DNA of 64,000 nucleotides from an uncultured Candidatus Saccharibacteria bacterium (lineage in GTDB: Bacteria; Patescibacteriota; Minisyncoccia; Phycocordibacterales; CSBR16-119), in the NCBI GenBank assembly GCA_964557535.1, contig CAZLAD010000001.1, positions 58,482 through 122,481 on the forward strand. Reading direction: 5' to 3'. This document shows, in pieces, positions 4,997 to 61,386 of the stretch. A model generated the notes under the pieces. That model worked only from the letters and a program-made list of their open reading frames with translations, had not been told where the DNA came from and searched no databases. Position 1 is the stretch's first letter. Every line of letters starts with the position of its first letter. Position numbers and translations under genes: made by a program.

Positions 4997-6432
4997 ATAT
5001 GAAATTAGAAGAGATTTTAAAAAACATTGAAGTCCTCGAAACCGTTGGCTCGGCCGATGTTATGGTCGAGCACCTTTCTCTTGATTCTCGAAATATAAAA
5101 CCAGATACTTTGTTTTTTGCCGTGTCGGGGACGAAAGTCGACGGACATGCTTTTATCGATACGGCGATTTCGGCTGGTGCCAAAATAATTGTTTGTGAAA
5201 AATTTCCAGAAAATTTAAATTCTGAAGTTACTTACGTTCGCGTCGAAAATACGAGTGAAATTGTCGGGCTTGTGGCTAAAAATTTTTTCGGCAACAACGA
5301 TTTTGAAATGAAAATTGTCGGTGTGACAGGCACGAACGGCAAAACCACGATTGCGACAATGCTTTATCAATTATTTACTTTGCTTGGCCACAAAGGCGGA
5401 CTACTTTCGACGGTTGAAAATATTATCGGGACAGAAGTTCTTCCGGCGACGCATACGACAGGCGATGCAATTCAAATCCAAGAAAATTTGGCCAAGATGC
5501 GCGAGGCCAAGACGAAATATTGCTTCATGGAGGTGAGCTCGCATGCGATTGATCAGAATAGAATTGCCGGAATTGATTTTACCGGCGGAATTTTTACAAA
5601 CTTGACCCAAGACCATCTCGATTACCATCAGACCCTTGATGAATACGCCAAAGTCAAGAAAGCTTTTTTCGATTCTTTAACCAATCAAGCTTTTGCACTT
5701 TATAATTCTGACGATAATCGGGGAAGTTTTATGGTTGCTGATACTCACGCAAAAATAATTTCATACGGTAAAGTTGCCGCAGATTTTATTTTTAAAGTAA
5801 AAAAATCTTCTGCCGACGGACTCGAGCTCGTCATTAACGATACGATAGTTGTAACGTCGCTTGTCGGAGAATTCAATGCGTACAATATCACAGCAATATT
5901 TGCGGCCGCCGTGACACTCGGCGCCAAGCCAGACGACGTCGTAACCGCAATCGCGAAGCTTTCCGGCGCGCGCGGACGCATGGAAAAAGCAACGAGCGCT
6001 TCGGGAATTTTTGGCTTGGTTGATTATGCGCACACGCCGGACGCTCTCGAAAATGTTTTGAAGACGATCAATACTTTCAAACAAGGTCGTGTCGTTACGG
6101 TTTTTGGTGCGGGTGGCGACAGAGATAAAACCAAGCGTCCCATAATGGGTGAAATCGCCTCAAGACTTAGTGATGTTGTTGTCGTTACATCAGATAATCC
6201 GCGAAGCGAACGACCCGAAGACATCGCCGATGACATTCTCGCCGGGATCAAAGATAAAACAAATGTCGAGACGATTCTCGATCGTCGTGAAGCGATCAAG
6301 CGGGCGGTCGAGATCTCAAAGCCTGGGGACATTGTTTTGGTCGCGGGCAAAGGCCACGAAGATTATCAGGATGTCGCCGGAGTCAAAAGTCATTTTTCTG
6401 ATTTAGAAGTTTTGAGAGAATTTTTATCATGA
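4993..6432 (+). CDS. murE: UDP-MurNAc-L-Ala-D-Glu:meso-DAP ligase (MurE)
   Basis: Mur ligase P-loop VGVTGTNGKTT. The DNPR motif (VTSDNPRSE) indicates meso-diaminopimelate specificity. The first ATG is at 4999; 4993 is a TTG. Confidence 0.92.
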   Translation: MNMKLEEILKNIEVLETVGSADVMVEHLSLDSRNIKPDTLFFAVSGTKVDGHAFIDTAISAGAKIIVCEKFPENLNSEVTYVRVENTSEIVGLVAKNFFGNNDFEMKIVGVTGTNGKTTIATMLYQLFTLLGHKGGLLSTVENIIGTEVLPATHTTGDAIQIQENLAKMREAKTKYCFMEVSSHAIDQNRIAGIDFTGGIFTNLTQDHLDYHQTLDEYAKVKKAFFDSLTNQAFALYNSDDNRGSFMVADTHAKIISYGKVAADFIFKVKKSSADGLELVINDTIVVTSLVGEFNAYNITAIFAAAVTLGAKPDDVVTAIAKLSGARGRMEKATSASGIFGLVDYAHTPDALENVLKTINTFKQGRVVTVFGAGGDRDKTKRPIMGEIASRLSDVVVVTSDNPRSERPEDIADDILAGIKDKTNVETILDRREAIKRAVEISKPGDIVLVAGKGHEDYQDVAGVKSHFSDLEVLREFLS

Positions 6433-7751
6433 GTAATTGGCAAGAATTTTTCAAAGGAAAAAAAGTAACGGTCATGGGACTCGGACTTTTGGGTCGGGGG
6501 ATTAACGATGTGAAATTTTTAGCGAAATATTGCGCTGAAGTCTTGGTGACCGATTTAAAATCTGCCGAAGAATTAAAAACCTCGCTTGATGAGATAAAAG
6601 ATTTTCAAAATATAAAACTAGTTCTTGGCGAGCATCGATTGGAAGACTTTGAAAATCGTGATTTTGTTCTAAAAGCCGCTGGGGTGCCGATTGACTCTCT
6701 ATATATAGAACATGCCAAGAAAAATAATGTGCCGGTTTATATGGATGAGGCGCTTTTTGTGAAGTTGGCTGGAGATATTCTAACCATCGGCGTGACTGGT
6801 ACGCGTGGCAAGACAACGACGACAATGATGATTGAGAAAATTTTGTCTGACGCGGGCAAACCAATACTTCTCGGAGGCAATATTCGCGGAATGGCGACAT
6901 TGCCACTTCTCGAAACTTTCAAATCCGGCGATATCATACTTATGGAACTGTCTTCGTGGCAACTTCAAGGCTTTGGTGACATAAAATTGAGTCCGCATAT
7001 TTCCGTCTTCACTAATTTCTACGATGATCATTTAAATTATTACAAGAACGACAAGAATTTGTATTTTGCCGACAAAGCTTTGATTTACAAAAATCAAACA
7101 CCACAAGATTTTCTAGTATATGGAGCGGATATTTCCGAAAATTTCAAAGAGGACATCAGAAATTCTGCCGGAAATAAATTTGAAATTTCTATCAAAGACT
7201 TTCCAGAGAATTTGGATTTGCGAATTCCGGGCGAGCACAACAAGATAAATGCGGCGCTCGCCCGACAAGTCGGTCTCGTTCTTGGTATTGACGAAGATTC
7301 GATTCAAAATTCCCTAAAAAATTTTTCTGGAGTTGCGGGACGTCTAGAATTTGTTCGAAATTTCAAGGGAATTGATTTTTACAACGACACGACAGCGACG
7401 AGCCCCGTTGCGACCATAACTGCCATCAATTCGCTTCACCAAAAAGATAAAAATTTGATTTTGATAATGGGTGGTGCGGACAAAAAGTTAGTCATGGATG
7501 AACTCTTGCCGGTCATAAAAAACAAAGTTTCAAAAGTTGTAATGCTTCCTGGGACAGGAACAGATTTGATAAAAGATAAATTTGAAACTAAAATTGAGGT
7601 GTCAAATATGAAGGAGGCAGTTTCGAAGGCCTTGGAAATATCGGAAAGTGGCGATACGGTGCTTTTGTCTCCAGCTTTTGCTTCGTTTGGTTTGTTTAAA
7701 AATGAATTTGATCGCGGAGATCAATTTGATGAAGCAGTAAAATCTTTATGA
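6429..7751 (+). CDS. murD: UDP-MurNAc-L-Ala:D-Glu ligase (MurD)
   Basis: N-terminal Rossmann-like VTVMGLGLLGRG and P-loop GVTGTRGKTTTT. ATGA overlap with murE. Confidence 0.9.
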   Translation: MSNWQEFFKGKKVTVMGLGLLGRGINDVKFLAKYCAEVLVTDLKSAEELKTSLDEIKDFQNIKLVLGEHRLEDFENRDFVLKAAGVPIDSLYIEHAKKNNVPVYMDEALFVKLAGDILTIGVTGTRGKTTTTMMIEKILSDAGKPILLGGNIRGMATLPLLETFKSGDIILMELSSWQLQGFGDIKLSPHISVFTNFYDDHLNYYKNDKNLYFADKALIYKNQTPQDFLVYGADISENFKEDIRNSAGNKFEISIKDFPENLDLRIPGEHNKINAALARQVGLVLGIDEDSIQNSLKNFSGVAGRLEFVRNFKGIDFYNDTTATSPVATITAINSLHQKDKNLILIMGGADKKLVMDELLPVIKNKVSKVVMLPGTGTDLIKDKFETKIEVSNMKEAVSKALEISESGDTVLLSPAFASFGLFKNEFDRGDQFDEAVKSL

Positions 7752-30269: not shown

Positions 30270-30722
30270 ATGGACACCTTCACCATTGACTACGGAGTTA
30301 ATATTGTGGATATGTTGAAGATCCACAATATTAAGGTAAATACAAGTATCAAGACGAACAGCTTCGAGATGCTCCATGAAGGAAAAGGGATACAGGATAT
30401 CCAGTATGAAGTCTTCAAAGCAACGCGGAGCCACCGAAGTCATTGGGCTGGCTATGTGGGTATTCGTACTCATGAAGTTCGTGAGGAAATGGCAGAAAAG
30501 GGTTTCCGGAATGCTACGCTCCAAGAACTGATAGCTTATGGCGTCTCCGAGAAATGCCCACCAACCAACTCGGGCATAAGAATTCTTGATTGGGCTCTAG
30601 AAGGCCTTCCAGGATACATCCCTCGTTTTGATAAAGGTAAGTACAGTACCTGGCTCACTGTTGATAAAAACGAATGGTCGTGGCACGGCCAAGAAAAGTT
30701 CCTCGGCATTCGTACACAGTAA
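30270..30722 (+). CDS. Hypothetical protein (150 aa)
   Basis: Coherent ORF with its own promoter (30181) and terminator (30739-30768). No motifs. Moderately GC-elevated. Confidence 0.45.
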   Translation: MDTFTIDYGVNIVDMLKIHNIKVNTSIKTNSFEMLHEGKGIQDIQYEVFKATRSHRSHWAGYVGIRTHEVREEMAEKGFRNATLQELIAYGVSEKCPPTNSGIRILDWALEGLPGYIPRFDKGKYSTWLTVDKNEWSWHGQEKFLGIRTQ

Positions 30723-30738
30723 GCTACAAAGTGCAGCA

Positions 30739-30768
30739 GGCCCCGCAAGTCGGGGCCTTTTGCTTTTA
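30739..30768. terminator. Bidirectional intrinsic terminator
   Basis: Stem GGCCCCG/CGGGGCC with loop CAAGT, then TTTTGCTTTT. It sits between convergent genes. Confidence 0.75.
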
Positions 30769-30773
30769 ATTTA

Positions 30774-31298
30774 TTACATCCCAAAAGTTTCTCTGAGAGA
30801 CTTTTCGGTCACGGGGTCGATGTGTTGCGTGACGATGATCATGATTTCGTCAGCGAGATTCATGTCAGTTTTTATATTCATAAACAAATGTTCAAAAGGG
30901 TAGGGCGAGATCCACACAGAATTTTTCATACACAAAAATCCAGCTTTTTTGAGGATGTAGCGGATCGAGTCGCGCTCGCTTTTTCTCGATTCGGGGAAGT
31001 CCAGCATAACCATGCGCCAGTAGCCATCCCAGCGTGTATCGACGAGGCTGGTCGGAGTGCTAAGTTTGATATTTCGGAGTTTGTTTCGTCCCTCAGCTGT
31101 TAGACGTAGAAAAGACGACCGGTCGGTTGGGATTTCCTCTATAAGCCCGGATTCGGCCATGTTTTTGAGGCTTCGAGTTATGGCATATTTCTCGGCCGAA
31201 TCGCTTTCTAGGGCGAAAATTTCGCGGTTTATGGCCTTCTTGGAGCCCAATTTCTCGAGAATTTGCTTTTGGAGATTGGATTTTCTTGACATGCCCAA
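30774..31298 (-). CDS. PaaX-family winged-helix regulator-like protein (paralog 1), divergent from grpE
   Basis: C-terminal WDGYWRMVMLDFPESRKSERDSIRYILKKAGFLCMKNSVWISPYPFE matches the PaaX_C-type signature W..W..v.fD.pe....R..lr..L...GF..lq.SvW..P. It is paralogous to 35886..36455. Confidence 0.6.
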   Translation of the reverse strand: MGMSRKSNLQKQILEKLGSKKAINREIFALESDSAEKYAITRSLKNMAESGLIEEIPTDRSSFLRLTAEGRNKLRNIKLSTPTSLVDTRWDGYWRMVMLDFPESRKSERDSIRYILKKAGFLCMKNSVWISPYPFEHLFMNIKTDMNLADEIMIIVTQHIDPVTEKSLRETFGM

Positions 31299-31349
31299 AA
31301 TGTAGCATATAATACTTTAACTAGCAAGTTTTCCACGGTCGTGAAAAAC

Positions 31350-31377
31350 TTGTCAAAATTATAAAATTGATTATAAT
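31350..31377 (+). promoter_or_regulatory. grpE-dnaK operon promoter (TTGTCA-16-TATAAT), 6 nt from the ATG; leaderless
   Basis: TTGTCA at 31350-55 and TATAAT at 31372-77, with ATG at 31384. It is preceded by the palindromic motif CACGGTCGTG (31339-31348), which also occurs in element E7. Confidence 0.65.
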
Positions 31378-31383
31378 TGGCCC

Positions 31384-31926
31384 ATGAATGATGAATTAGA
31401 TAATGAAATAGAATTTACTGACGAGGACGGAGAATCGAGCCAAGCTGACAAGATCAAAAAGCTTCGGTCCGAACTCAAGGAGTCCAAAGACCAGTCGCAA
31501 AAGAATCTAGATGGCTGGCAACGCGCTCTCGCGGACTATGCGAACCTCCAGAAGACTTCGAACGAGCAGATGAAGGAACTCAAAAGTTATGTGCTCGAGG
31601 GTTTTGTCGAAGAACTTCTGCCTACGCTCGATGCGTTTGAGATGGCGATGAAGAACAAGGAGACGTGGGAATCAGTTTCAGAGAATTGGCGCAAGGGAAT
31701 CGAATACATTTACGAGCAACTTCGCGCGATTCTCACGAACAATGGAGTGACCGAAATTGGCGATACGAAAGAAAAGTTTAATCCAGAACACCATCACGCG
31801 ATCGAAGAAATTGAAACGAGCGATGCTTCTAAAGATCACACCATTTCCGAAGTTGTTCAGAAAGGTTACAAGTCGGCGAAGGGTGTCATCAGGCCAGCGA
31901 AAGTGAAAATATTTATTAAAAAATAA
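31384..31926 (+). CDS. grpE: Nucleotide exchange factor GrpE
   Basis: Acidic N-terminus, coiled coil, GrpE core (YANLQKTS...LPTLDAFEMA...FNPEHHHAI). Confidence 0.9.
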   Translation: MNDELDNEIEFTDEDGESSQADKIKKLRSELKESKDQSQKNLDGWQRALADYANLQKTSNEQMKELKSYVLEGFVEELLPTLDAFEMAMKNKETWESVSENWRKGIEYIYEQLRAILTNNGVTEIGDTKEKFNPEHHHAIEEIETSDASKDHTISEVVQKGYKSAKGVIRPAKVKIFIKK

Positions 31927-31948
31927 TTATTAGCATAATTCAAAAAAT

Positions 31949-33835
31949 ATGAGCAAAATTATTGGAATCGATTTAGGAACTACAAACAGTGCTGTCGCCA
32001 TCATTGAGGGTGGTCAGCCGAAAATTATTGAGAATGCGGAGGGGATGAGAACGACGCCCTCGATTGTTGCTTTGGCCAAAAACGGCGACACGATGGTGGG
32101 TGTAACAGCCAAGCGCCAATCAATCACAAATCCGAAAAACACGATCTACCAAATCAAACGCTTTATCGGCCACAATTTCGACGAACCAGAAGTCCAGAAG
32201 GATATAAAAGCCGTGCCTTTTGAAACGCGAAAATCTGCAAATGGCGGTATCGAAGTAAAATTCGGTGAAGACTGGAAACGTCCAGAAGAAATCTCGGCGA
32301 TGATTCTCCAGAAAATCAAAGCCGACGTTGAAGCGAAAATCGGCCAGAAAGTTACCGAAGCTGTCATCACTGTTCCGGCATATTTCAACGACGCACAACG
32401 CCAAGCGACAAAAGATGCCGGTAAAATTGCCGGACTCGACGTCAAACGCATCATCAACGAACCGACTGCGGCGGCCCTCGCGTACGGATTTAACAAGAAA
32501 AAAGATGAAAAGGTAGTCGTCTTTGACTTTGGAGGTGGAACATATGACGTATCTATTCTTGAAGTATCCGAAGACACGATCGAGGTCAAGTCTACCGACG
32601 GCGACGCGCACTTGGGCGGCAAGGATATCGATCAGAAAATCATGGACTGGCTAGCTGAAGGATTCCAAAAGGAAAATGGTATTGATTTGCGTAAAGATCC
32701 ATTGGCTAAACAGCGTCTCGACGATGCCGCGGAGAAAGCGAAAATCGAACTCTCAACTGCTGTGCAGTCAGAAATCAACATTCCATTTATCACATCTGGT
32801 GAAGCCGGACCACTTCACCTCGTTCGCACTATGAAGCGTGCCGAGCTCGAAGAACTAACACGTGAATTTATTGATCGTGCGATGATGATCACCAAGCGTG
32901 CGATGGAAGCTTCGCCGTTCAAAATTTCTGATATCAACGAAGTTATTCTCGTCGGCGGTCAGACTCGCATGCCGGCTATTCAGGAAGCTGTCGAAAAATT
33001 CTTTGGCAAAAAGGTAAACCTATCTGTTAACCCAGACGAAGTTGTAGCACTCGGCGCAGCGATTCAGGGCGGAGTTTTGCAGGGTGATGTCAAAGACGTT
33101 CTCTTGCTCGACGTGATCCCGCTCTCACTCGGTATAGAGACTTTGGGAGGTGTTGCGACAAAACTCATCGAGAAAAATACGACAATTCCCGCAAGCAAGT
33201 CACAAGTGTTCTCAACCGCAGCTGACAATCAGACTTCAACAGAGATTCACATCGTTCAGGGCGAGCGACCAATGGCAACGGACAACAAATCTCTCGGACG
33301 ATTCGTCCTCGAAGGAATTCCGCCGGCGCCACGAGGCGTACCGCAAATTGAAGTTACGTTTGATATCGACGCGAACGGAATCTTGAATGTTAAGGCGAAA
33401 GACAAAACTTCCGGCAAAGAACAGTCTATCCGTATCGAAGCCTCGTCCGGTCTCTCTGATGCTGAAATTGAGAAGATGAAGAAAGATGCCGAGCTCAATG
33501 CCGAAGCAGACAAGAAAAAGAAAGAACTTGTTGATATAAAAAATAATGCCGAGATGACGATATTCACTGCAGAAAAAGCAATGAAAGACGCCGAAGGCAA
33601 AATTGGCGATGATGTGAAGAAGTCTGTTGAAGAAAAAGTTGCTAAACTAAAGGAGGTCAAAGAGTTGCCAGATCACCATACCGATGACGGTGGACGCCTA
33701 AAGTCTGCGACAGATGAGCTTATGACCGAAATGCAGAAAATCGGCGAGGCGATGAGTAAGGCGCAGGCCGCTGAACCAAAAGCCGAAGAAACAAAAAAGG
33801 ATGACAATATTCAAGACGCTGAGGTTCAAAACTAA
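31949..33835 (+). CDS. dnaK: Chaperone DnaK (Hsp70)
   Basis: [25 protein letters not shown] and [11 protein letters not shown] motifs. Full length. Confidence 0.97.
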
Positions 33836-33837
33836 TT

Positions 33838-34488
33838 ATGAGTCTTGTTAGTGATGTAAAAGATAATATTGTAGACTTTGTGAAAGAAAGAGGGTCAAGT
33901 CCCTTTTGGGTGCCGTATGTTATTGCATGGGCATTTCTTCACTGGAAAGCAGTCTATGTAACAATTTTTGTTGGTTCGGATAGTTTGGAAGGTATAACTA
34001 AGTTGGATTATGTGATAAAAAATTTACCTCGAATGGAGTGGTGGTGGACGACACTTGTTGCGCTTGGGATTACTTACTTTTACTACATATTCATACGTTT
34101 TATTGTTAATCCAACATACTGGCTTAAATATTGGGCAATAAAACATAGGTTTAAGATAAAAGAGGAAGCTGACAGAGAAATAATCGAGGAAAAAATAAAA
34201 ACAGAACAAGCTCAGGATAGTTTAGACAACCAGTGGATTCAAGATTATGAGGAATTCACCATAAGTGCTGAGAATAGAGTAAAACTAGATTCGCTAATAA
34301 ATCTTATCTACAGCGATTCGGCTGGAAATTTACAGCACTCAGGTAACTATAATCTCAATAGATCTGATGTTGCCTTTTTTGATGCTTTAAAAATAGTTCA
34401 CATCGAGGAAGATAAATACGGTAATAAAAGAGCTTCTTTAACCGACAAGGGTAAATATTTCTATAGTCTGTCGAAAAAAAATAAATAA
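33838..34488 (+). CDS. Hypothetical two-TM membrane protein embedded in the dnaK operon
   Basis: Starts 3 nt after the dnaK stop. Two hydrophobic helices, an Arg/Glu-rich cytoplasmic segment, and about 35% GC, which is lower than dnaK (about 46%). Confidence 0.55.
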   Translation: MSLVSDVKDNIVDFVKERGSSPFWVPYVIAWAFLHWKAVYVTIFVGSDSLEGITKLDYVIKNLPRMEWWWTTLVALGITYFYYIFIRFIVNPTYWLKYWAIKHRFKIKEEADREIIEEKIKTEQAQDSLDNQWIQDYEEFTISAENRVKLDSLINLIYSDSAGNLQHSGNYNLNRSDVAFFDALKIVHIEEDKYGNKRASLTDKGKYFYSLSKKNK

Positions 34489-34489
34489 A

Positions 34490-34942
34490 ATGTCAAAAGA
34501 TCACAGAGATAAAATTATTGAGATGACTTCTGGGTTAGATGTTAAACATTCAGTTCATGAACCAGTCGGAAAGAGTAAGGAAGCTTCAGAGCTTCGTGGT
34601 GTTCCACTTTCTTCGGGAGCGAAAGCTATCCTTATCCAAGGCAAGAAAACAGACAAAAGATATTTGTTTGTCGTACCGGCCCATAAAAGATTAGACTCAA
34701 AAAGTGTCCAAAATACGATCGGAGAAAAGTTTTCGTTTGTCTCGGATGTTGAAAAGGAGTTTGATTGCGTTCCGGGATCAGTATCGCCGTTTGGTAGTGT
34801 CTTGGGTCTTCAAACGTATGCCGATGAGGGACTTGAAGATGTGCTAAACTTTAACATCGGTCTTCTGACAGAATCTCTACAAATGAAGAAAGAAGATTAT
34901 TTGAAATTAGAAAACCCGATTCTTGGAAATTTCACTGAATAA
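34490..34942 (+). CDS. YbaK/ProX-family aminoacyl-tRNA trans-editing deacylase-like protein
   Basis: [11 protein letters not shown]...[16 protein letters not shown]...[22 protein letters not shown] fits the YbaK/EbsC fold signature. Translationally coupled between the membrane-protein ORF and dnaJ. Confidence 0.6.
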
Positions 34943-34943
34943 A

Positions 34944-35825
34944 ATGTCAAAAGACTATTACAAAATTCTAGAAGTTGATAAAAGCGCTTCCAAAGAAGAG
35001 CTGAAAAAAGCTTTTCGTAAAAAGGCGCACGAATATCATCCGGACAAGAAAACTGGCAATGAAGCCAAGTTCAAGGAAGTGAACGAGGCTTACCAGGTTC
35101 TTTCTGACGACCAGAAACGCGCACAGTACGATCGGTTTGGTTCTGCCGGACCGCAGTTTGGCGGTCAAGGAAGTCAGGGCTTTGGTGGATTCGATTTTGG
35201 CGGATTCAATATCAACTTCGACGGTTTCCAGAATGGTCAGGAATTTGATTTGAACGACTTGTTCTCGGCTTTTGGTGGCGGAGGATTCGGCCGCCGCGTC
35301 AAACGCGGCAGGGACATAATTTTGTCACTTAGTATTTCGTTTAAAGAATCTGTTCAGGGAACTTCCAAAACTATCAAAGTTCCGTCCGAAAGCGCACAGA
35401 AAGGAAAGGGTGAAGTCGAATTCAAAATCCCAGCCGGTATCGAGTCAGGACAGATGATGAAGCTCCAAGGCTATGGCGAGCCAGTTGCCGATGGTCAGCC
35501 AGGAGATCTACTTCTCAAAATCTACGTCGAGTCACATAAATCTTTGCGCAAAGAGGGAATTCATCTTGTCACGAATCTCTCTGTCAAACTTACCGACGCC
35601 ATCCTCGGCGCGACGTATGACGTCGAAGGTGTTGATGGTCCGATCAAAATCAAAATTCCAAAAGGCATAAACACTGGCAAAATTCTCCGCATCAAAGGCG
35701 CCGGCGTCGCCGCAGGGCGTTTCCAGCATGGCGACCTGCTCGTCGTTGTCGAAGTTGAAATTCCAGATTCACTTTCTCGCGAACAAAAGAAAATCATTGA
35801 AGATCTCCAAAAATCCGGTTTGTAA
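34944..35825 (+). CDS. dnaJ: DnaJ-class co-chaperone (CbpA-like, no zinc-finger domain)
   Basis: J-domain with HPD (YYKILEV...YHPDK), a G/F-rich region, and C-terminal substrate-binding domains. No CxxCxGxG repeats. Confidence 0.85.
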
Positions 35826-35885
35826 ACAAGAAACCCATATATCTATCGGTGGTTTATAATTTACATATGTTACACTTAGACCACC

Positions 35886-36455
35886 ATGAAAAAGGTTTTT
35901 CGGAAGGCTAAAATAGATTACAAAGAAATCGTATTGAAATCACTTTTAGCTCTTGGTATTGTCGGACTTGCTACTCTAGCTCCAAATGCATTACAAATAA
36001 TAAAACTATTCCAAAACGACAAGGATTACAAATACCGAAAATATAATTTAAACAAAAAGATTTTTCTTTTACAAAAACAAGGCTATATTTATTTTGTCAC
36101 GAGAAATGGACAAAAGTTTGTGACGCTGACACCAAAAGGTAAGAAAGAAGTTGATAAATATTTACTTGGAGATCTGCAAATAAAAAAGCCCAAGAAGTGG
36201 GACAAGAAGTGGCGGATTGTTAGTTTTGATGTGAAAAATACCAGAACACCGCTTCGCAATCTCTTACGGCATCACTTGCGCCGTCTTGGATTTGTGCAAT
36301 ATCAGAAAAGTATTTGGATTCATCCGTATGATTGTGAGGAAATTATCATTATGATGAAATCGTATTTTAAATTCGGCAAGGAAGTAATGTATATAGTGGC
36401 TGAGCATTTAGAAAATGATAAAGATCTTCAGAAACATTTTGAAATAAAACGATAA
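35886..36455 (+). CDS. PaaX-family regulator-like protein (paralog 2)
   Basis: WDKKWRIVSFDVKNTRTPLRNLLRHHLRRLGFVQYQKSIWIHPYDCEE aligns with the C-terminus of 30774..31298. About 36% GC. Confidence 0.6.
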   Translation: MKKVFRKAKIDYKEIVLKSLLALGIVGLATLAPNALQIIKLFQNDKDYKYRKYNLNKKIFLLQKQGYIYFVTRNGQKFVTLTPKGKKEVDKYLLGDLQIKKPKKWDKKWRIVSFDVKNTRTPLRNLLRHHLRRLGFVQYQKSIWIHPYDCEEIIIMMKSYFKFGKEVMYIVAEHLENDKDLQKHFEIKR

Positions 36456-44331: not shown

Positions 44332-44344
44332 TAAAAAAGATGGG

Positions 44345-44459
44345 TCCCGTAAGAGATGTTTTGTTAAAAACAATCACTTCGCGGGTAGGGGTTCGAAGAG
44401 TTATTTAATTACAAAAATTAACAGGGTACGCAAATTAATAATTTGCTATCTCTAACGGG
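44345..44459 (+). repeat. IR-bounded element E2 (115 nt) ending at the ATG of a 49-aa membrane ORF
   Basis: TCCCGTAAGAGAT ... TACGCAAATTAATAATTTGCTATCTCTAACGGG followed by ATG. It begins 14 nt after the trpS stop. Confidence 0.75.
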
Positions 44460-44609
44460 ATGAAAAATTTTGTTTTGGGTTTGGTTTTTGTTTTGATTTT
44501 GATTGCGGTTATCGTTTTATTCAAGAGAATGGGCGAAGAGAAAGAACCAGAACTTAGGAGCTTGGACGAATTTTCAAATATTCAGGAGGGCGACATATTG
44601 CCACAATAG
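44460..44609 (+). CDS. Small hydrophobic protein (49 aa), putative
   Basis: MKNFVLGLVFVLILIAVIVLFKRMGEEKEPELRSLDEFSNIQEGDILPQ. The start codon is the ATG that terminates element E2. A terminator follows. It is below the ORF-track length cutoff. Confidence 0.4.
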   Translation: MKNFVLGLVFVLILIAVIVLFKRMGEEKEPELRSLDEFSNIQEGDILPQ

Positions 44610-49071: not shown

Positions 49072-49151
49072 ATCCCGATAGTGAAAGCGGTCGCTTTCGG
49101 GAGAATTACTGGTATTTATTAATCTAAAGACCGCAAACTATCACTATCGGG
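49072..49151 (+). repeat. IR-bounded element E3 (short variant, 80 nt) ending at the aspS ATG
   Basis: AATCCCGATAGTGA ... TCACTATCGGG followed by ATG. Internal palindrome GAAAGCGGTCGCTTTC. Confidence 0.7.
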
Positions 49152-50573
49152 ATGCAATCAAGAACTTATATCCGCGATCTTTCGAGTCGCGCTGGGGAAG
49201 AAGTCGTCATAAAAGGCTGGATTCAGATTCGCCGTGACCAGGGGAAAATGATTTTCTTTGATTTTCGTGACGCCACCGGCGTCGTGCAGGGCGTCGTCCT
49301 TCCGGGTTCTAATGCTATGGATACGGCCAAAGAAACTCGCTCCGAATGGGTGGTTGCGGTCACGGGAAAAGTAAATGCTCGCCCTGAAAAAAATATCAAA
49401 GTCGGGGTTTTAAACGGTGACATCGAACTTGAAGTTTTGGGTATGGAAGTTTTAAACAAGGCCGAGACTCCGCCATTTGATATTTTGGCCGATACGCGCG
49501 AAGTCAACGAAGAAACACGTCTGACCAATCGTTACATCGATATTCGTTCCGAACGCCTCCAGAAAAATCTGCGCATGCGTCACAAGGTTCAGAATTTTGT
49601 GCGAGCAAATTTGGACGCGCAAAATTTCGTGGAAGTTGAAACTCCAATTTTCACCAAATCCACTCCCGAAGGCGCTCGCGATTATGTCGTACCATCTCGC
49701 ATTTATCCGGGAAACTTTTACGCGCTTCCACAATCTCCGCAACAATACAAACAACTTCTCATGGCTGGTGGCATGGAACGCTACTATCAATTCGCTCGTT
49801 GTATGCGTGACGAGGACCTGCGCGGTGATCGCCAACCAGAATTTACTCAGCTCGACATGGAAATGTCTTTTGCGACCGAAGAAGATGTCATGGCGGTGAC
49901 CGAAAATCTGCTCATAAAAATTGTCACAGAGCTTTATCCTGAGAAAAAAATTCAAGCAATTCCTTTCCCGAGAATTCCTTATAAAGAAGCGATGGAAAAA
50001 TATGGATCCGATCGGCCGGACATTCGCGAAAACAAAGAAGACCCAAACTCTCTCGCGTTTTGCTGGGTAGTGGATTTTCCATTTTTCGAAAGAACTGACA
50101 AATCTGACAATCCTCAGGCCGAGGGAGAATGGACATTTACTCACAATCCGTTTTCGATGTGCAAACCAGAGCATTTACCAAATGTTATGAACAAGGAAAA
50201 TATTGGTGATGTTCTCGCGGCGCAATACGACATCGTCCTCAATGGTTATGAAATCGGCGGGGGATCGATTCGTGCGCATGATCCGGAGATTTTGAAAAAT
50301 ATTCTCGGCATCCTCGGCTACACTCCAGAGAAAATCGAAACCGACTACGGCCACATGCTTCGGGCGCTTGCATCCGGCACGCCTCCGCACGGCGGACTTG
50401 CTTGGGGCTTTGATCGTCTGATGATGATTCTCCAAAACGAACCGAACATCCGCGAAGTTATTGCATTTCCGAAAACTCGAGAGGGAAGAGATCCAATGAT
50501 GCAATCACCGTCACCAGTTTCGGATAAACAACTCGCGGAACTAAATATTTCGATAAATAAAAGAAGGGAATAA
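49152..50573 (+). CDS. aspS: Aspartyl-tRNA synthetase (short form without GAD insertion domain)
   Basis: N-terminal OB anticodon-binding domain. Class II motifs (FRDATGV...; GGGSIR; GLAWGFDRL). 473 aa. Confidence 0.93.
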   Translation: MQSRTYIRDLSSRAGEEVVIKGWIQIRRDQGKMIFFDFRDATGVVQGVVLPGSNAMDTAKETRSEWVVAVTGKVNARPEKNIKVGVLNGDIELEVLGMEVLNKAETPPFDILADTREVNEETRLTNRYIDIRSERLQKNLRMRHKVQNFVRANLDAQNFVEVETPIFTKSTPEGARDYVVPSRIYPGNFYALPQSPQQYKQLLMAGGMERYYQFARCMRDEDLRGDRQPEFTQLDMEMSFATEEDVMAVTENLLIKIVTELYPEKKIQAIPFPRIPYKEAMEKYGSDRPDIRENKEDPNSLAFCWVVDFPFFERTDKSDNPQAEGEWTFTHNPFSMCKPEHLPNVMNKENIGDVLAAQYDIVLNGYEIGGGSIRAHDPEILKNILGILGYTPEKIETDYGHMLRALASGTPPHGGLAWGFDRLMMILQNEPNIREVIAFPKTREGRDPMMQSPSPVSDKQLAELNISINKRRE

Positions 50574-51773: not shown

Positions 51774-51875
51774 AATCCCGATAGTGATTATAAGTCGGGT
51801 TAAATAATTTACTTAGATAAAGTTTGTAATTTGTTGTAAAATGAAAAAATCTCTTAATCAATAATCACTATCGGG
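51774..51875 (+). repeat. IR-bounded element E4 (102 nt) filling the scpA-scpB spacer
   Basis: AATCCCGATAGTGATTA ... AATCACTATCGGG followed by the scpB ATG. It begins 2 nt after the scpA stop. Confidence 0.75.
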
Positions 51876-52430
51876 ATGAATTTGGAATCAAAAATCGAAT
51901 CTTTTTTGTTTTGGAAAGGTGAACCGCAGACAGAGTGGGAGATAGCTGTTGCTATGCGAGTTGATCCGGCTGAAATTCCGGGAGCCCTGGCAAAGCTCGA
52001 AGAATCGCTAAAAGGCCATGGTGTTACACTTGTCCGTCATGGAAACAAGGTGATGCTTGGCACGAATCCCGAAATGTCACATTTTTTTGAAGAACTTCAG
52101 AAAGAAGAACTGAGCAAAGAACTTTCCAAAGCTGCGCTCGAGACACTTTCGATAATTCTCTACAAGGATTCGGTGACGCGAAGCGAGATAAATTTTATTC
52201 GCGGAGTGAACTCAGGATACATCTTGAGAAATCTGGAAATTCGCGGATTGGTGGAGAAAGCAAACCAAAAAAACGATGCCCGCACGTATGTTTACAAGCC
52301 GACTCTCGAATTGTTATCATATCTCGGGGTTTCCAAGGTCTCCGATTTGCCACAGTTCGAAACGATCAGAAATACACTCGAGACCAAGCTCTCCGGTCAG
52401 CCAGATCAGGAAGGAAATGAATCCCGTTAG
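51876..52430 (+). CDS. scpB: Segregation and condensation protein B
   Basis: Tandem winged helices (ALETLSIILYKDSVTRSEINFIRGVNSGYILRNLEIRGLVEK). Confidence 0.85.
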   Translation: MNLESKIESFLFWKGEPQTEWEIAVAMRVDPAEIPGALAKLEESLKGHGVTLVRHGNKVMLGTNPEMSHFFEELQKEELSKELSKAALETLSIILYKDSVTRSEINFIRGVNSGYILRNLEIRGLVEKANQKNDARTYVYKPTLELLSYLGVSKVSDLPQFETIRNTLETKLSGQPDQEGNESR

Positions 52431-52539
52431 AGATTGATTGGTTACAAATTCAGAAAAAAGCGGGTAGAATACGAAGGGTAAATTAATTATAAATTTTAAT
52501 ACAAGCTACGTCGCGCCGGGTGCGACTATCTCTAACGGG
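52421..52539 (+). repeat. IR-bounded element E5 (119 nt); left IR overlaps the scpB stop codon
   Basis: ATCCCGTTAGAGAT at 52421-52434 contains the scpB TAG. ...GTCGCGCCGGGTGCGACTATCTCTAACGGG is followed by ATG (dacA-like). Confidence 0.75.
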
Positions 52540-53481
52540 ATGAAGATTAGAATTAAAGAATCCGAAAGACAAATTATATTTGCGATGGTCTTACTGGCCA
52601 TCGTGGGTGTTTTTTATGTTCGTCAAATAAATCAAGAAATTATTTTAGGTGAAATAAAAGACAAAGAAATTCTCGCATACGAGGAATCGATTAAACCGTT
52701 TTTGAACTTGGCGCTCGAGGCCAAATCTTTCGCTATTTATGACGCTGATATAAATAATTTTGTTTACAAGAAAAACGCCGAGAGCGCCATGCCGCTTGCA
52801 AGTCTGGCCAAAGTCATGAGCGCGATTGTGGTGATGGAGAATGCACCGGCCGACACGGTGTTTGAAATTTCCAAAGAATCGCTTGACCAAGCCGCCGATC
52901 ATGGACTTCTACTTCATGAGAAATGGACTCGTGACGAACTTTTGAAATTTGCGCTACTTGTCTCTTCAAATGACGCTATTCACGAGCTTGCACTTGAAAC
53001 AGGCCAGATCATGGATCCCGAAGCCAAAGACTCGCTCCAAGTTTTCGTAGCGCGTATGAATACCAAAGCATCCGAACTAGGGCTCAAAAGTTTTGTCTTC
53101 AAAAACGAATCAGGACTTGATCTAAATGAAGCAGAAAATGGTGCGTATGGTTCGGCGCGCGACATGGCCAAACTTTTTGCTTACGCGGTCAAAACCTATC
53201 CAGAAATTTTTGACGTAACTCGCACCAAGATTGCGACGATTGCCTCACTTGATAAATCGCACAACATCGACAACACCAACACTGTCGTCGAAGAAATTCC
53301 TGGAATTGTCGCTTCAAAGACTGGATTTACGACTCTCACTGGTGGGAATTTGGTCGTAGCGACAACCCCCGATGCCAAATCAACTCGCGTTATGATAGTC
53401 ATGGGATCGACATATGATGAACGCTTTACCGACATGAAAACTCTCACCAGTGCCGTGGCCCATAGTAACAATAATTTATGA
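52540..53481 (+). CDS. dacA: D-alanyl-D-alanine carboxypeptidase (S11, PBP5/6-like)
   Basis: SLAKVMS (SxxK), SSND (SxN) and KTGFT (KTG) motifs. N-terminal TM or signal. Confidence 0.8.
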   Translation: MKIRIKESERQIIFAMVLLAIVGVFYVRQINQEIILGEIKDKEILAYEESIKPFLNLALEAKSFAIYDADINNFVYKKNAESAMPLASLAKVMSAIVVMENAPADTVFEISKESLDQAADHGLLLHEKWTRDELLKFALLVSSNDAIHELALETGQIMDPEAKDSLQVFVARMNTKASELGLKSFVFKNESGLDLNEAENGAYGSARDMAKLFAYAVKTYPEIFDVTRTKIATIASLDKSHNIDNTNTVVEEIPGIVASKTGFTTLTGGNLVVATTPDAKSTRVMIVMGSTYDERFTDMKTLTSAVAHSNNNL

Positions 53482-56521: not shown

Positions 56522-56638
56522 ATCCCGTTAGAGATGTCGTAGTCAAAATTATTCAGGAAGGTTATAAAATAATGGTCGTCAATTACTTACAAAATATTAA
56601 GTCAGATACGCAAACCAAAGTTTGCTATCTCTAACAGG
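56522..56638 (+). repeat. IR-bounded element E6 (117 nt) filling the ftsW-murG spacer
   Basis: ATCCCGTTAGAGAT ... GGTCGTCAATTACTTACAAAAT...GATACGCAAACCAAAGTTTGCTATCTCTAACAGG followed by the murG ATG. Confidence 0.75.
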
Positions 56639-57769
56639 ATGAAAATTGTTATTACAGGCGGTGGTTCGGGAGGGCATTTTTATCCTGCTATCGCAATAGC
56701 AGAGAAGTTGAACGAACTTGCATTGGCTGAAAAAATTTTAGATCTTGAGCTTTTTTATATTGCCGACACCCCATACGACAAACGCGCGCTCGACGACAAT
56801 CGAATGACTTTTTTGGAACTAAATACTGGAAAACAAAGAACATATTTTTCTGTTCAAAATTTTTTTGATATCTTCAAAACTTTTTTCGCGACAATTCGAG
56901 CAATTTTTATCCTTTATAAAATTTTTCCAGATGTTGTTTTCTCCAAAGGTGGCTATCCGTCGGTTCCGGTGACTATTGCTTCGAGAGTGCTTGGGATACC
57001 TGTCGTTATCCACGAATCAGATTCTGTACCTGGACGCGCCAACAAAATGGCTGGTAAGTGGGCAAAACGTATTGCGATTTCTTACAAAGAAGCTTCGGAT
57101 TATTTCCCCAAAGAAAAAACCGCTTTCGTTGGACACATTGTCAGAAAAGAAATTCGAACACCGCTTAGAGAGGGGGCTTTTGAATATCTAAAATTAAAGT
57201 CTTCTTTGCCTGTTATTTTTATTTTGGGTGGTTCGCAAGGTGCCAAGATAATAAACGAGACGATTTTAAATGCTTTGCCAGAGCTTGTCACGAGATATCA
57301 AATTATCCATCAGACAGGAGTAAAAAATTTTGAAGAAGTGAAAATTATTGCCGATCTAAATCTAAAAGAATCAGAAGCCAAACAAAATTATTATCCATAT
57401 CCATATCTAAACAAACTAGCCATACGTATGGCGGCGGGGGTCGCGGAGCTTGTCGTCTCTCGTGCGGGAGCAAATTCTATTGCCGAAATAGCATCATGGG
57501 GACTACCGTCTATCATCATCCCGATAACAAAAACAAATGGTGATCACCAGCGCAACAATGCGTTTAACTATGCTGAAACAGGAGCATGTGTAGTAATCGA
57601 AGAATCCAATTTGGCTCCGAATGTTTTGATCGAAGAAATAGATAGGCTTTTTGCTGATACAGCGACCTTTAAAAACATGAAGGAAGCAACATCAAAATTT
57701 GTTTTTCCAGACGCCGAAGAAAAAATTGCCCGAGAGATAATTAATATCGGACTTTCCCATGAGCAATAA
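56639..57769 (+). CDS. murG: UDP-GlcNAc:MurNAc-pentapeptide GlcNAc transferase
   Basis: N-terminal GGGSGGHFYPA loop. GT-B fold. C-terminal UDP-binding region. Confidence 0.9.
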   Translation: MKIVITGGGSGGHFYPAIAIAEKLNELALAEKILDLELFYIADTPYDKRALDDNRMTFLELNTGKQRTYFSVQNFFDIFKTFFATIRAIFILYKIFPDVVFSKGGYPSVPVTIASRVLGIPVVIHESDSVPGRANKMAGKWAKRIAISYKEASDYFPKEKTAFVGHIVRKEIRTPLREGAFEYLKLKSSLPVIFILGGSQGAKIINETILNALPELVTRYQIIHQTGVKNFEEVKIIADLNLKESEAKQNYYPYPYLNKLAIRMAAGVAELVVSRAGANSIAEIASWGLPSIIIPITKTNGDHQRNNAFNYAETGACVVIEESNLAPNVLIEEIDRLFADTATFKNMKEATSKFVFPDAEEKIAREIINIGLSHEQ

Positions 57770-60914: not shown

Positions 60915-60937
60915 ATTTGCTATTATTTAAGTACGTG

Positions 60938-61056
60938 TCCCGGTAGTGATACCTCGGTTTTGGATGGGATAATTAGTAATCTAACCACGGTCGTGAATTC
61001 TTTACAAAAAACTAACTTCGATACGCAAATTTAATAAATTTGCTATCACTATCGGG
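60938..61056 (+). repeat. IR-bounded element E7 (119 nt) ending at the ATG of the 61057 gene
   Basis: TCCCGGTAGTGATA ... CCACGGTCGTGAATTCTTTACAAAAAACTAACTTCGATACGCAAATTTAATAAATTTGCTATCACTATCGGG followed by ATG. It contains the same CACGGTCGTG motif as the grpE promoter region. Confidence 0.75.
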
Positions 61057-61386
61057 ATGATAAAAATCCTCGTCGGTGTGATTCTCTTGCTTGTTGTGCT
61101 CGGACTTTTGGGTGTATCTGTCCAGCACGATGTTATCGAACATGAAGGTGTTCAAGAAAACGTCTCGTATGTCTCGACAGGGGTCGTGGGATTTTGGAAT
61201 ACATATTTATCTCAACCCGCGCAATGGTTATGGCAAGAACTCATTGTAAATATTCTCTGGGAAACTTTTGCTCGAAATATGGAACGTCTACGTGACGGCG
61301 AGACTCCGACTGACTTCACCAATTCGCACCTCGACGACTGGCCAAGTATCCCGGAACTTATCGACAATTACAACGCGAATAATTAA
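61057..61386 (+). CDS. Hypothetical membrane-anchored protein (109 aa)
   Basis: N-terminal TM (IKILVGVILLLVVLGLLGV). No motifs. Confidence 0.45.
   Translation: MIKILVGVILLLVVLGLLGVSVQHDVIEHEGVQENVSYVSTGVVGFWNTYLSQPAQWLWQELIVNILWETFARNMERLRDGETPTDFTNSHLDDWPSIPELIDNYNANN

Follow-up and report, generated by a model that had tools for sequence, protein, structure and literature searches.

A PaaX-related winged-helix protein and a conserved intergenic dyad as a candidate repressor-operator pair at the dnaK operon of Paceibacteria

How is the Hsp70 system regulated in a bacterium whose grpE gene is preceded by neither the repressor gene hrcA nor its inverted repeat? The question arises from a 64,000-nucleotide stretch of contig CAZLAD010000001.1, which comes from an uncultured Candidatus Saccharibacteria bacterium and is referred to here as the window. 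In the window, grpE heads an operon that also contains dnaK and dnaJ, and the genes upstream are rpoA, rplQ, rplM, rpsI, and one open reading frame (ORF) with no Pfam match. As the original prediction had noted, no hrcA precedes grpE. The controlling inverted repeat of chaperone expression (CIRCE, TTAGCACTC-N9-GAGTGCTAA) has no copy at up to 3 mismatches in the whole window or in 1.4 Mb of related loci, and the HspR-associated inverted repeat (HAIR, CTTGAGT-N7-ACTCAAG) has none at up to 1 mismatch in the same 1.4 Mb and is likewise absent from the window. Instead, a small gene, called PaaXL1 here, is transcribed divergently from grpE, and a dyad lies between the two. On comparative evidence, we propose that, in Paceibacteria, PaaXL1 represses both the grpE/dnaK operon and its own gene through this dyad, and we put the probability of this reading at roughly two in three. 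The original prediction was broader, with PaaX-like proteins as the regulators and a short recurring motif as the operator; comparison supports PaaXL1 and its dyad in these roles, but not the paralog of PaaXL1 or the copies of the motif elsewhere in the window.

The candidate operator is 28 bp long and consists of two 13-nt arms around a 2-bp spacer, with 12/13 positions complementary (Table 1). Its core is the motif CACGGTCGTG from which the analysis started, and the 13-mer CCACGGTCGTGAA, at 31333-31345, ends four bases ahead of the TTGTCA box of the grpE promoter, so the palindromic CACG..CGTG half-sites do lie just before a -35 box, as first described. Palindromes of the same class number about 10 in the window, compared with 0.43 expected in Markov-simulated sequence; the remaining ones are mostly G+C-rich terminator-type hairpins, while this one sits between two divergent start codons. 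A 42-nt operator matrix, built from 71 unique sites, has a single match of at least 8 bits in the window, namely, the grpE site at 40.5 bits. In 588 kb of related loci, each locus yields a single match of 10 bits or more and shuffled loci yield none; a further 879 kb of related loci contain no secondary sites. Between the window and the locus L001 (77% protein identity), 47 consecutive bases over the dyad and the adjoining -35 region are identical, and the flanks have diverged. The consensus in related loci is ACAAGTATTTCGYG-RY-CRCGAAAWACTTGT, at a fixed offset from the start of the regulator gene. In the clade of the window, the core reads CACG-GT-CGTG instead of CGYG-RY-CRCG, both arms having changed together; no obvious correlate of the three core variants (CGYG, CACG, and KACG/CGTA) was found among the residues of the recognition helix.

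Two independently seeded sets of loci reveal how closely this site is tied to its two neighbors. First, a metagenome collection was scanned with the pattern ACAAGYWTTYNGYGNNCRCGAAAWNCTTG, which returned matches on at least 120 contigs. Because it uses no protein information, this DNA-side search is the stronger test of linkage. Among the 120 matches listed, 98 have the site flanked by a PaaXL1 ortholog on one side and, on the other, by dnaK or grpE in divergent orientation, 21 miss a partner because the contig ends within 700 nt, and one lies on a contig that is too short; among these listed matches, the site occurs in no other context. Second, 80 loci were retrieved from species-representative genomes by means of a 26-ortholog profile, and their gene neighbors were mapped by tblastn with the window proteins. 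All are Patescibacteria metagenome-assembled genomes, mostly labeled Paceibacterota or Nomurabacteria, with 51 to 77% protein identity, and in 75/80 the site is again placed between the ortholog and grpE or dnaK, which point away from each other. The original prediction had staked itself on conserved linkage with chaperone operons in relatives, and that linkage is decisively present: the full arrangement recurs in 173 of 200 loci (the 80 plus the 120 matches listed), and it persists down to about 42% protein identity.

The first chaperone gene is not always the same. It is dnaK in 160 of these loci and grpE in 13; in the closest relatives, the regulator faces grpE-dnaK, and in the others, it is divergent from dnaK directly, with grpE on the other side of the regulator, behind rpsI. 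Since both gene orders keep the site and the regulator, the linkage is to the promoter ahead of dnaK and has survived the rearrangement. The exceptions can be accounted for by contig ends or insertions, save L041, in which the 808 nt upstream of the gene contain no site. L039 is cut at the contig start, and in a few other loci, ORFs, including Y1-transposase-like genes, have been inserted between the site and one partner. By eye, an ORF of about 236 aa between the operator and the PaaXL1 gene in several metagenome loci (L085, 294-989; L102, 1157-1867; and L199, 3017-3739) resembles an IS200/Y1-type transposase of the kind associated with repetitive extragenic palindromes; the window has no such gene.

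Distances within the intergenic region raise an alternative, in which PaaXL1 regulates only its own gene and the adjacency of dnaK is inherited synteny. The dyad center lies a median of 47 nt from the regulator start (interquartile range, 47 to 62 nt), whereas the chaperone start is anywhere between 83 and 1748 nt away from it (median, 128 nt). Moreover, in unrelated contexts, the starts of the paralog PaaXL2 and of a distant homolog in L206 also have palindromes. We nevertheless regard own-gene control alone as unlikely. The linkage has outlived the switch of the first chaperone gene from grpE to dnaK and the divergence in protein identity described above. In L183, an insertion parts the site from the regulator, and the site still lies 64 nt from dnaK. 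Where ORFs have been inserted on the chaperone side, they run in the same direction as dnaK and downstream of the promoter that faces the chaperone genes, and in most loci the right arm of the dyad overlaps that near-consensus promoter.

This promoter, P2, has its -35 box at 31350-31355, the TTG of which forms the last three bases of the right dyad arm. Its -10 box ends 6 nt ahead of the grpE ATG, and the P2 transcript is therefore predicted to be leaderless. An equivalent of P2, with TTG at the end of the right arm and TAnnnT 16 to 18 nt later, is present in 134 of 171 unique loci, most commonly as TTGTCA, TTGCAA, or TTGCTA followed, after 17 nt, by TATAAT. On the left, a putative promoter for PaaXL1, Px, falls below the threshold of the consensus scan; its -10 box ends six bases before the PaaXL1 ATG, and its predicted start at the A of the ATG at 31292 would give a leaderless transcript too. 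Px draws support from its mirror-image geometry and from the constancy of the 47-nt distance between the dyad center and the regulator start across loci. The outermost 3 nt of each dyad arm are the TTG of a -35 box, so that PaaXL1 and grpE appear to have back-to-back promoters sharing these bases with the outer ends of the dyad. A further promoter-like sequence, P1, points toward grpE. Its -35 box overlaps the PaaXL1 start codon, and its predicted start at about 31320 places the dyad at about +6 to +33. P1 has an equivalent in 122 of 174 unique loci, with TTGACA at or beside the regulator start codon and a -10 box ending 0 to 15 nt before the dyad.

Would a protein on this site repress or activate? 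In the second case, PaaXL1 would activate the dnaK/grpE promoter from a dyad centered near -45.5, in the style of class I or class II activators, and indeed the dyad core stops immediately upstream of the P2 -35 hexamer and, mirrored, of that of Px. Activation seems improbable, about to the same degree as control of PaaXL1 alone. In most loci, the boxes of P2-type promoters are near consensus and optimally spaced, as is typical of promoters under repression, and no activator is needed. The P1 start, moreover, lies just upstream of the dyad, and the closest structural relatives of PaaXL1, PaaX and the MarR family, are repressors (PMC9493321). Repression is the likelier sign because a dyad-bound protein would adjoin or overlap the two -35 boxes and, in addition, be positioned just downstream of the P1 start.

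With P1 in use, the dyad would be transcribed, and the palindrome might then function as RNA, with a hairpin in the transcript from P1 that serves as attenuator, stability element, or thermometer and with the protein unrelated to it. The variation of the dyad makes this very improbable. Over 112 unique 30-nt sites, complementarity holds at 79% of mirror positions, but the counts at mirror pair 13/18 (C,A 36; T,A 31; C,G 29; and T,G 16) are those predicted by independent variation, without covariation. Mismatches are not biased toward pairs that RNA tolerates, with 71 of the G.U type, 120 of the C.A type, and 143 others. At the center, 45 sites have GT and 42 have its reverse complement, AC. 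The absence of covariation, the lack of a G.U excess, and the flipping GT/AC center all favor a symmetric dimer on DNA over RNA pairing. In addition, a 2-nt loop is sterically impossible, the site lies outside the P2 transcript, and Rfam has no match anywhere in the window.

What kind of protein, then, is PaaXL1? The original prediction had described a 174-aa PaaX-family-like winged-helix protein encoded 85 bp from grpE. The divergent ORF is real, and a TTG at 31298 would indeed give 174 aa (30774-31298); however, homologs start with MSRK or MSKK in the alignment, which makes the ATG at 31292 the likely start and gives 172 aa and a gap of 91 bp to grpE. The family label overstates its membership, as only the central domain matches. 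PF20803 (PaaX_M) is the sole significant Pfam match (E value, 2.1e-21; 76.2 bits versus a cutoff of 24), over residues 88-166. N-terminal winged-helix models, including MarR, stay below threshold; the PaaX N-terminal (PF07848) and C-terminal (PF08223) domains have no match at E values up to 1; and there is no Pfam match to the HrcA domain or the MerR helix-turn-helix. The chain ends at residue 172, right after the central domain.

Structure prediction places the protein more precisely. An AlphaFold2 (AF2) model built on 26 orthologs has a mean predicted local distance difference test score of 82 and the topology H-H-H-E-E followed by E-H-E-E-H-E-H, that is, three helices and a two-stranded wing and then a ferredoxin-like beta-alpha-beta-beta-alpha-beta unit with a terminal helix. 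Compared with the PDB by Foldseek, the model has E. coli PaaX (8A39; E value, 1.9e-7) as its top match, followed by the PaaX-like structures 3L09 and 3KFW and by many MarR-family repressors, some of which have been solved on operator DNA; the MarR-family matches include 5H3R and 7DVV, the latter on DNA. A PDB sequence search with the PaaXL1 family profile gave nothing significant, just weak eS10/MarR winged-helix matches, and it was the fold search that recovered PaaX as a relative. The invariant residues Y36, A37, R40, L42, and K43 all fall in the third helix (residues 32-47), which is expected from the model to be the recognition helix. The Cas2-like domain is more conserved than the N-terminal part, with about 35 invariant positions in the ortholog alignment.

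These data also address the names that databases give to members of this family, which are PaaX, Cas2, or hypothetical protein. E. coli and Pseudomonas PaaX, the repressor of the phenylacetate catabolon, is composed of a winged helix, a motif for dimerization, and, at the C terminus, a five-helix domain to which phenylacetyl-CoA binds; it binds TGATTC-N27-GAATCA and, as a repressor under autoregulation, competes at promoters with RNA polymerase (PMC9493321). PaaXL1 likewise has a winged helix followed by a Cas2-like domain, the part that mediates dimerization in PaaX, but it has no five-helix domain and is about 130 residues shorter, its dyad is compact with a 2-bp spacer, and its partner is dnaK or grpE rather than paa genes. 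It scores 38.3 bits against the TIGR02277 PaaX equivalog, for which the cutoff is 264.55, and covers model positions 37-142 of 279 (NCBIfam). The Cas2 models PF09827 and TIGR01573 do not match it, and no paa, cas, or clustered regularly interspaced short palindromic repeat (CRISPR) features are among the surrounding genes. Although the Joint Genome Institute labels several orthologs "DNA-binding transcriptional regulator PaaX" and some PaaXL2-type proteins are named Cas2, the idea that PaaXL1 is a genuine phenylacetyl-CoA-responsive PaaX or a Cas2 nuclease is refuted, as regards membership, by the equivalog, domain, operator, neighborhood, and Cas2-model tests, and we leave it next to no probability. 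PaaXL1 is a distant homolog consisting of the first two PaaX domains only, and not a PaaX. An exhaustive family-wide profile search, counted as clusters at 50% identity, returned 4,038 clusters at E values up to 0.001, 1,482 at 1e-10, and only 19 at 1e-30; given these 19, the dnaK-linked orthogroup is a minor, tightly conserved branch within the large family that short PaaX_M proteins form.

Together, protein and site suggest the following model. A PaaXL1 dimer would bind WTTYCRYG-N2-CRYGRAAW between the -35 boxes of two back-to-back promoters, one of which would drive PaaXL1 and the other grpE-dnaK-...-dnaJ in the window or, in most relatives, dnaK directly. Bound there, PaaXL1 would occlude both -35 boxes and sit just downstream of the P1 start; it would thereby repress both its own gene and the chaperone operon. 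Derepression would presumably follow heat or proteotoxic stress. The Cas2-like domain is a possible sensor, either intrinsically thermolabile or DnaK/DnaJ dependent by analogy with HspR. This step is modeled on HspR, for which DnaK is the corepressor, and on repressors that are intrinsically heat labile. The stronger version of the proposal, in which PaaXL1 is a dedicated stress-responsive repressor of the Hsp70 system in Paceibacteria, with the Cas2-like domain as a thermosensor or DnaK-dependent sensor, and replaces HrcA/CIRCE at the dnaK operon of this branch within the candidate phyla radiation, is put forward only tentatively, at well below even odds.

Several observations weigh against PaaXL1 as the autoregulated repressor of the operon. 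Relative to P2, the dyad core spans about -36 to -56 and reaches no more of the -35 box than the TTG, a position that some activators use. Px, the promoter of the regulator itself, overlaps P1 on the other strand, and at most one of the two geometries may be real. The site lacks a downstream grpE altogether in most relatives. The conservation of the outer arms (ACAAG/CTTGT) may stem from the -35 boxes rather than from protein contacts; if so, the contact core would be the inner 20 bp or so (31329-31348), which is also what we regard as the probable extent of protein contact. Finally, no second operator near any other gene was found in the window, in the 588 and 879 kb of related loci, or in the pattern-seeded loci listed, a negative result whose strength is limited by the strict pattern and the short flanks, and on this evidence nothing would tie PaaXL1 to a wider heat shock regulon.

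Comparison with known regulators places the proposed pair in a familiar class. With MarR-type divergent repressor-operator pairs, PaaXL1 shares the winged-helix fold with a conserved putative recognition helix and a short, conserved palindrome in the shared intergenic region that overlaps promoter elements (-35/-10 in the MarR pairs); the MarR proteins, which are dimeric, dimerize via N- and C-terminal helices, whereas PaaXL1 has a separate Cas2-like domain. HrcA is also a winged-helix repressor of grpE-dnaK-dnaJ with a conserved inverted repeat, and hrcA lies beside grpE in many bacteria; it is, however, the co-directional first gene of the operon and has an unrelated sensor domain, while PaaXL1 is divergent and CIRCE is absent. 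HspR of Streptomyces, Helicobacter, and Mycobacterium is likewise a dedicated, self-controlled repressor beside a dnaK operon with an inverted repeat at the dnaK promoter, but it belongs to the MerR family and is encoded at the operon end, whereas PaaXL1 is divergent and has a different fold, and HAIR is absent.

Table 1. Features of the chaperone locus and of the E repeats, in window coordinates
Feature	Position	Strand	Basis or remark
PaaXL1 gene (172 aa)	30774-31292	minus	ORF list; ATG at 31292, start backed by homolog alignment
N-terminal winged helix of PaaXL1	~residues 1-77		AF2 topology
Cas2-like PaaX_M domain of PaaXL1	~residues 88-170		Pfam and AF2
Candidate operator, 28-bp dyad CAAGTTTTCCACG-GT-CGTGAAAAACTTG	31325-31352		Between PaaXL1 and grpE; inverted repeat and conservation
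Px, putative PaaXL1 promoter: -35 TTGCTA (31327-31322), 17 nt, -10 TACATT (31304-31299)	31299-31327	minus	Read from sequence
P1, promoter-like, toward grpE: TTGACA, 16 nt, TATAAT	31286-31313	+	Consensus scan, 12/12
P2, promoter for grpE-dnaK: TTGTCA, 16 nt, TATAAT	31350-31377	+	Consensus scan, 11/12
Target operon, grpE-dnaK-two ORFs-dnaJ	31384-35825	+	
grpE	31384-31926	+	Pfam
dnaK	31949-33835	+	Pfam
216-aa ORF between dnaK and dnaJ	33838-34488	+	No Pfam/NCBIfam match
YbaK/tRNA_edit-like ORF, 150 aa	34490-34942	+	Aminoacyl-tRNA-editing domain
dnaJ	34923-35825	+	Pfam
Candidate PaaXL2 operator, imperfect palindrome GGTGGTTTA...CATATG...TAGACCACC	35848-35885		Directly before the PaaXL2 ATG
PaaXL2 (189 aa)	35886-36455	+	Hydrophobic N-terminal segment, winged helix, and PaaX_M
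Probable terminator, G+C-rich hairpin	30738-30758		Between convergent 3' ends of PaaXL1 and ORF 30270-30722
E elements	2482-2600, 44344-44461, 49072-49153, 51775-51877, 52421-52541, 56522-56640, 60937-61058		
ORF starts at an E-element ATG	2483 (minus), 49152, 51876, 52540, 56639, 61057		

The paralog reported to follow dnaJ, PaaXL2, is indeed there (PF20803; E value, 3e-18), with 26% identity to PaaXL1 over 136 residues (E value, 7e-16) and 13 to 14 bits against Cas2 models, below their cutoffs. Its orthogroup is a different one and widespread, and databases call the members either PaaX or "CRISPR-associated endonuclease Cas2." It follows dnaJ only in the close relatives L203 (72% identity) and L205 (52%), and homologs at 41 to 42% identity (L206 and L207) stand by unrelated genes. 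Since the linkage to dnaJ is restricted to these two loci, PaaXL2 is not a general component of the chaperone locus. It has a different palindrome of its own, directly before its start codon, and L203 has a clearer one at the equivalent position (~5960-6000). The distant homolog in L206 is preceded (~6935-6980) by TTACGAAATTTACGCG-AC-CGCGTAAATTTCGTAA, a 16-2-16 dyad that is perfect and whose core, CGCG-AC-CGCG, is similar. These palindromes at the starts of PaaXL2 and its homologs suggest that autoregulation via dyads with 2-bp spacers, through subfamily-specific operators, is a property of the family. Weak precomputed Y1_Tnp matches occur in genes near the PaaXL2 homologs of L206 and L207.

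The other copies of the motif belong to a different story. The window contains seven copies of a 70- to 120-nt element, E, with terminal inverted repeats ATCCCGTTAGAGATA / TATCTCTAACGGGAT. Six copies were checked, and in each of them the last bases of the 3' repeat are ...CGGGATG, the ATG being the start codon of the downstream ORF. An E element also occurs at the grpE start, between P2 and grpE, in L002, L004, L005, and L006, though not in the window, L001, or L003. The element looks like a mobile cassette of the 5' untranslated region that brings its own ATG and is able to sequester it in a 15-bp closing stem. The RNA of the seventh copy, E7, folds at -35.4 kcal/mol (z score, -2.6) and has no Rfam match.

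An exact second copy of the 13-mer does exist in E7, at 60985-60997 rather than at 60975-60987 as first given. Alignment of E1 (reverse strand), E6, and E7 reveals a common internal module, GGTCGTNAATTNNTTACAAAA, and the 13-mer of E7 consists of this module with four bases added by chance. Considered as further operators, the copies in E7 and E1 were rejected: they score below 8 bits with the full-dyad matrix, the left arm is absent, and their bases belong to the E module. As half-sites, they score 8 to 9 bits, compared with 28.5 bits for the true right half. The module GTCGTNAATTNNTTACAAAA (2526-2547 on the minus strand, 56575-56596, and 60990-61011) is among the ten best right-arm half-site matches in the window; the resemblance may be due to chance or to a shared -35-like TTACAAAA. 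Enrichment of the bare 10-mer or 13-mer in the window did not reach significance in counts and was also abandoned in favor of the full-dyad matrix, the 10-mer having 4 matches at up to 1 mismatch versus 2.4 expected.

Some further features of the chaperone locus can be noted. The DnaJ protein of the window has a J domain and a C-terminal domain and, as it does not match the zinc-finger CXXCXGXG model, is class II (CbpA-like) and not class I. Where the window has the two ORFs interposed between dnaK and dnaJ, the relative L203 carries another small ORF, in the opposite orientation. The dnaK gene, too, is without a Shine-Dalgarno-like purine run upstream (31927-31951). The flanking genes around PaaXL1 are ribosomal and chaperone genes and cysS.

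A repressor-operator pair at a chaperone operon is of a known kind; the regulator family and the operator are new in this role. No paper linking the PaaXL1 family with dnaK or with heat shock regulation in Patescibacteria was found in a literature search whose coverage excluded most subscription journals. Almost nothing is known of transcriptional regulation in the candidate phyla radiation because the organisms are uncultured. Here, a protein, a site of about 28 bp, and a target operon could be defined from sequence alone, and they are conserved over about 200 independent genomes or contigs. The hypothesis can be tested with recombinant PaaXL1 and synthetic DNA, without culture. If confirmed, it would provide a function for one orthogroup among the approximately 1,480 clusters of short PaaX_M proteins (E value up to 1e-10), and a new family would join the small set of regulators of bacterial Hsp70 expression. 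If true, PaaXL1 would represent a further class of heat shock repressor alongside HrcA, HspR, CtsR, and RheA.

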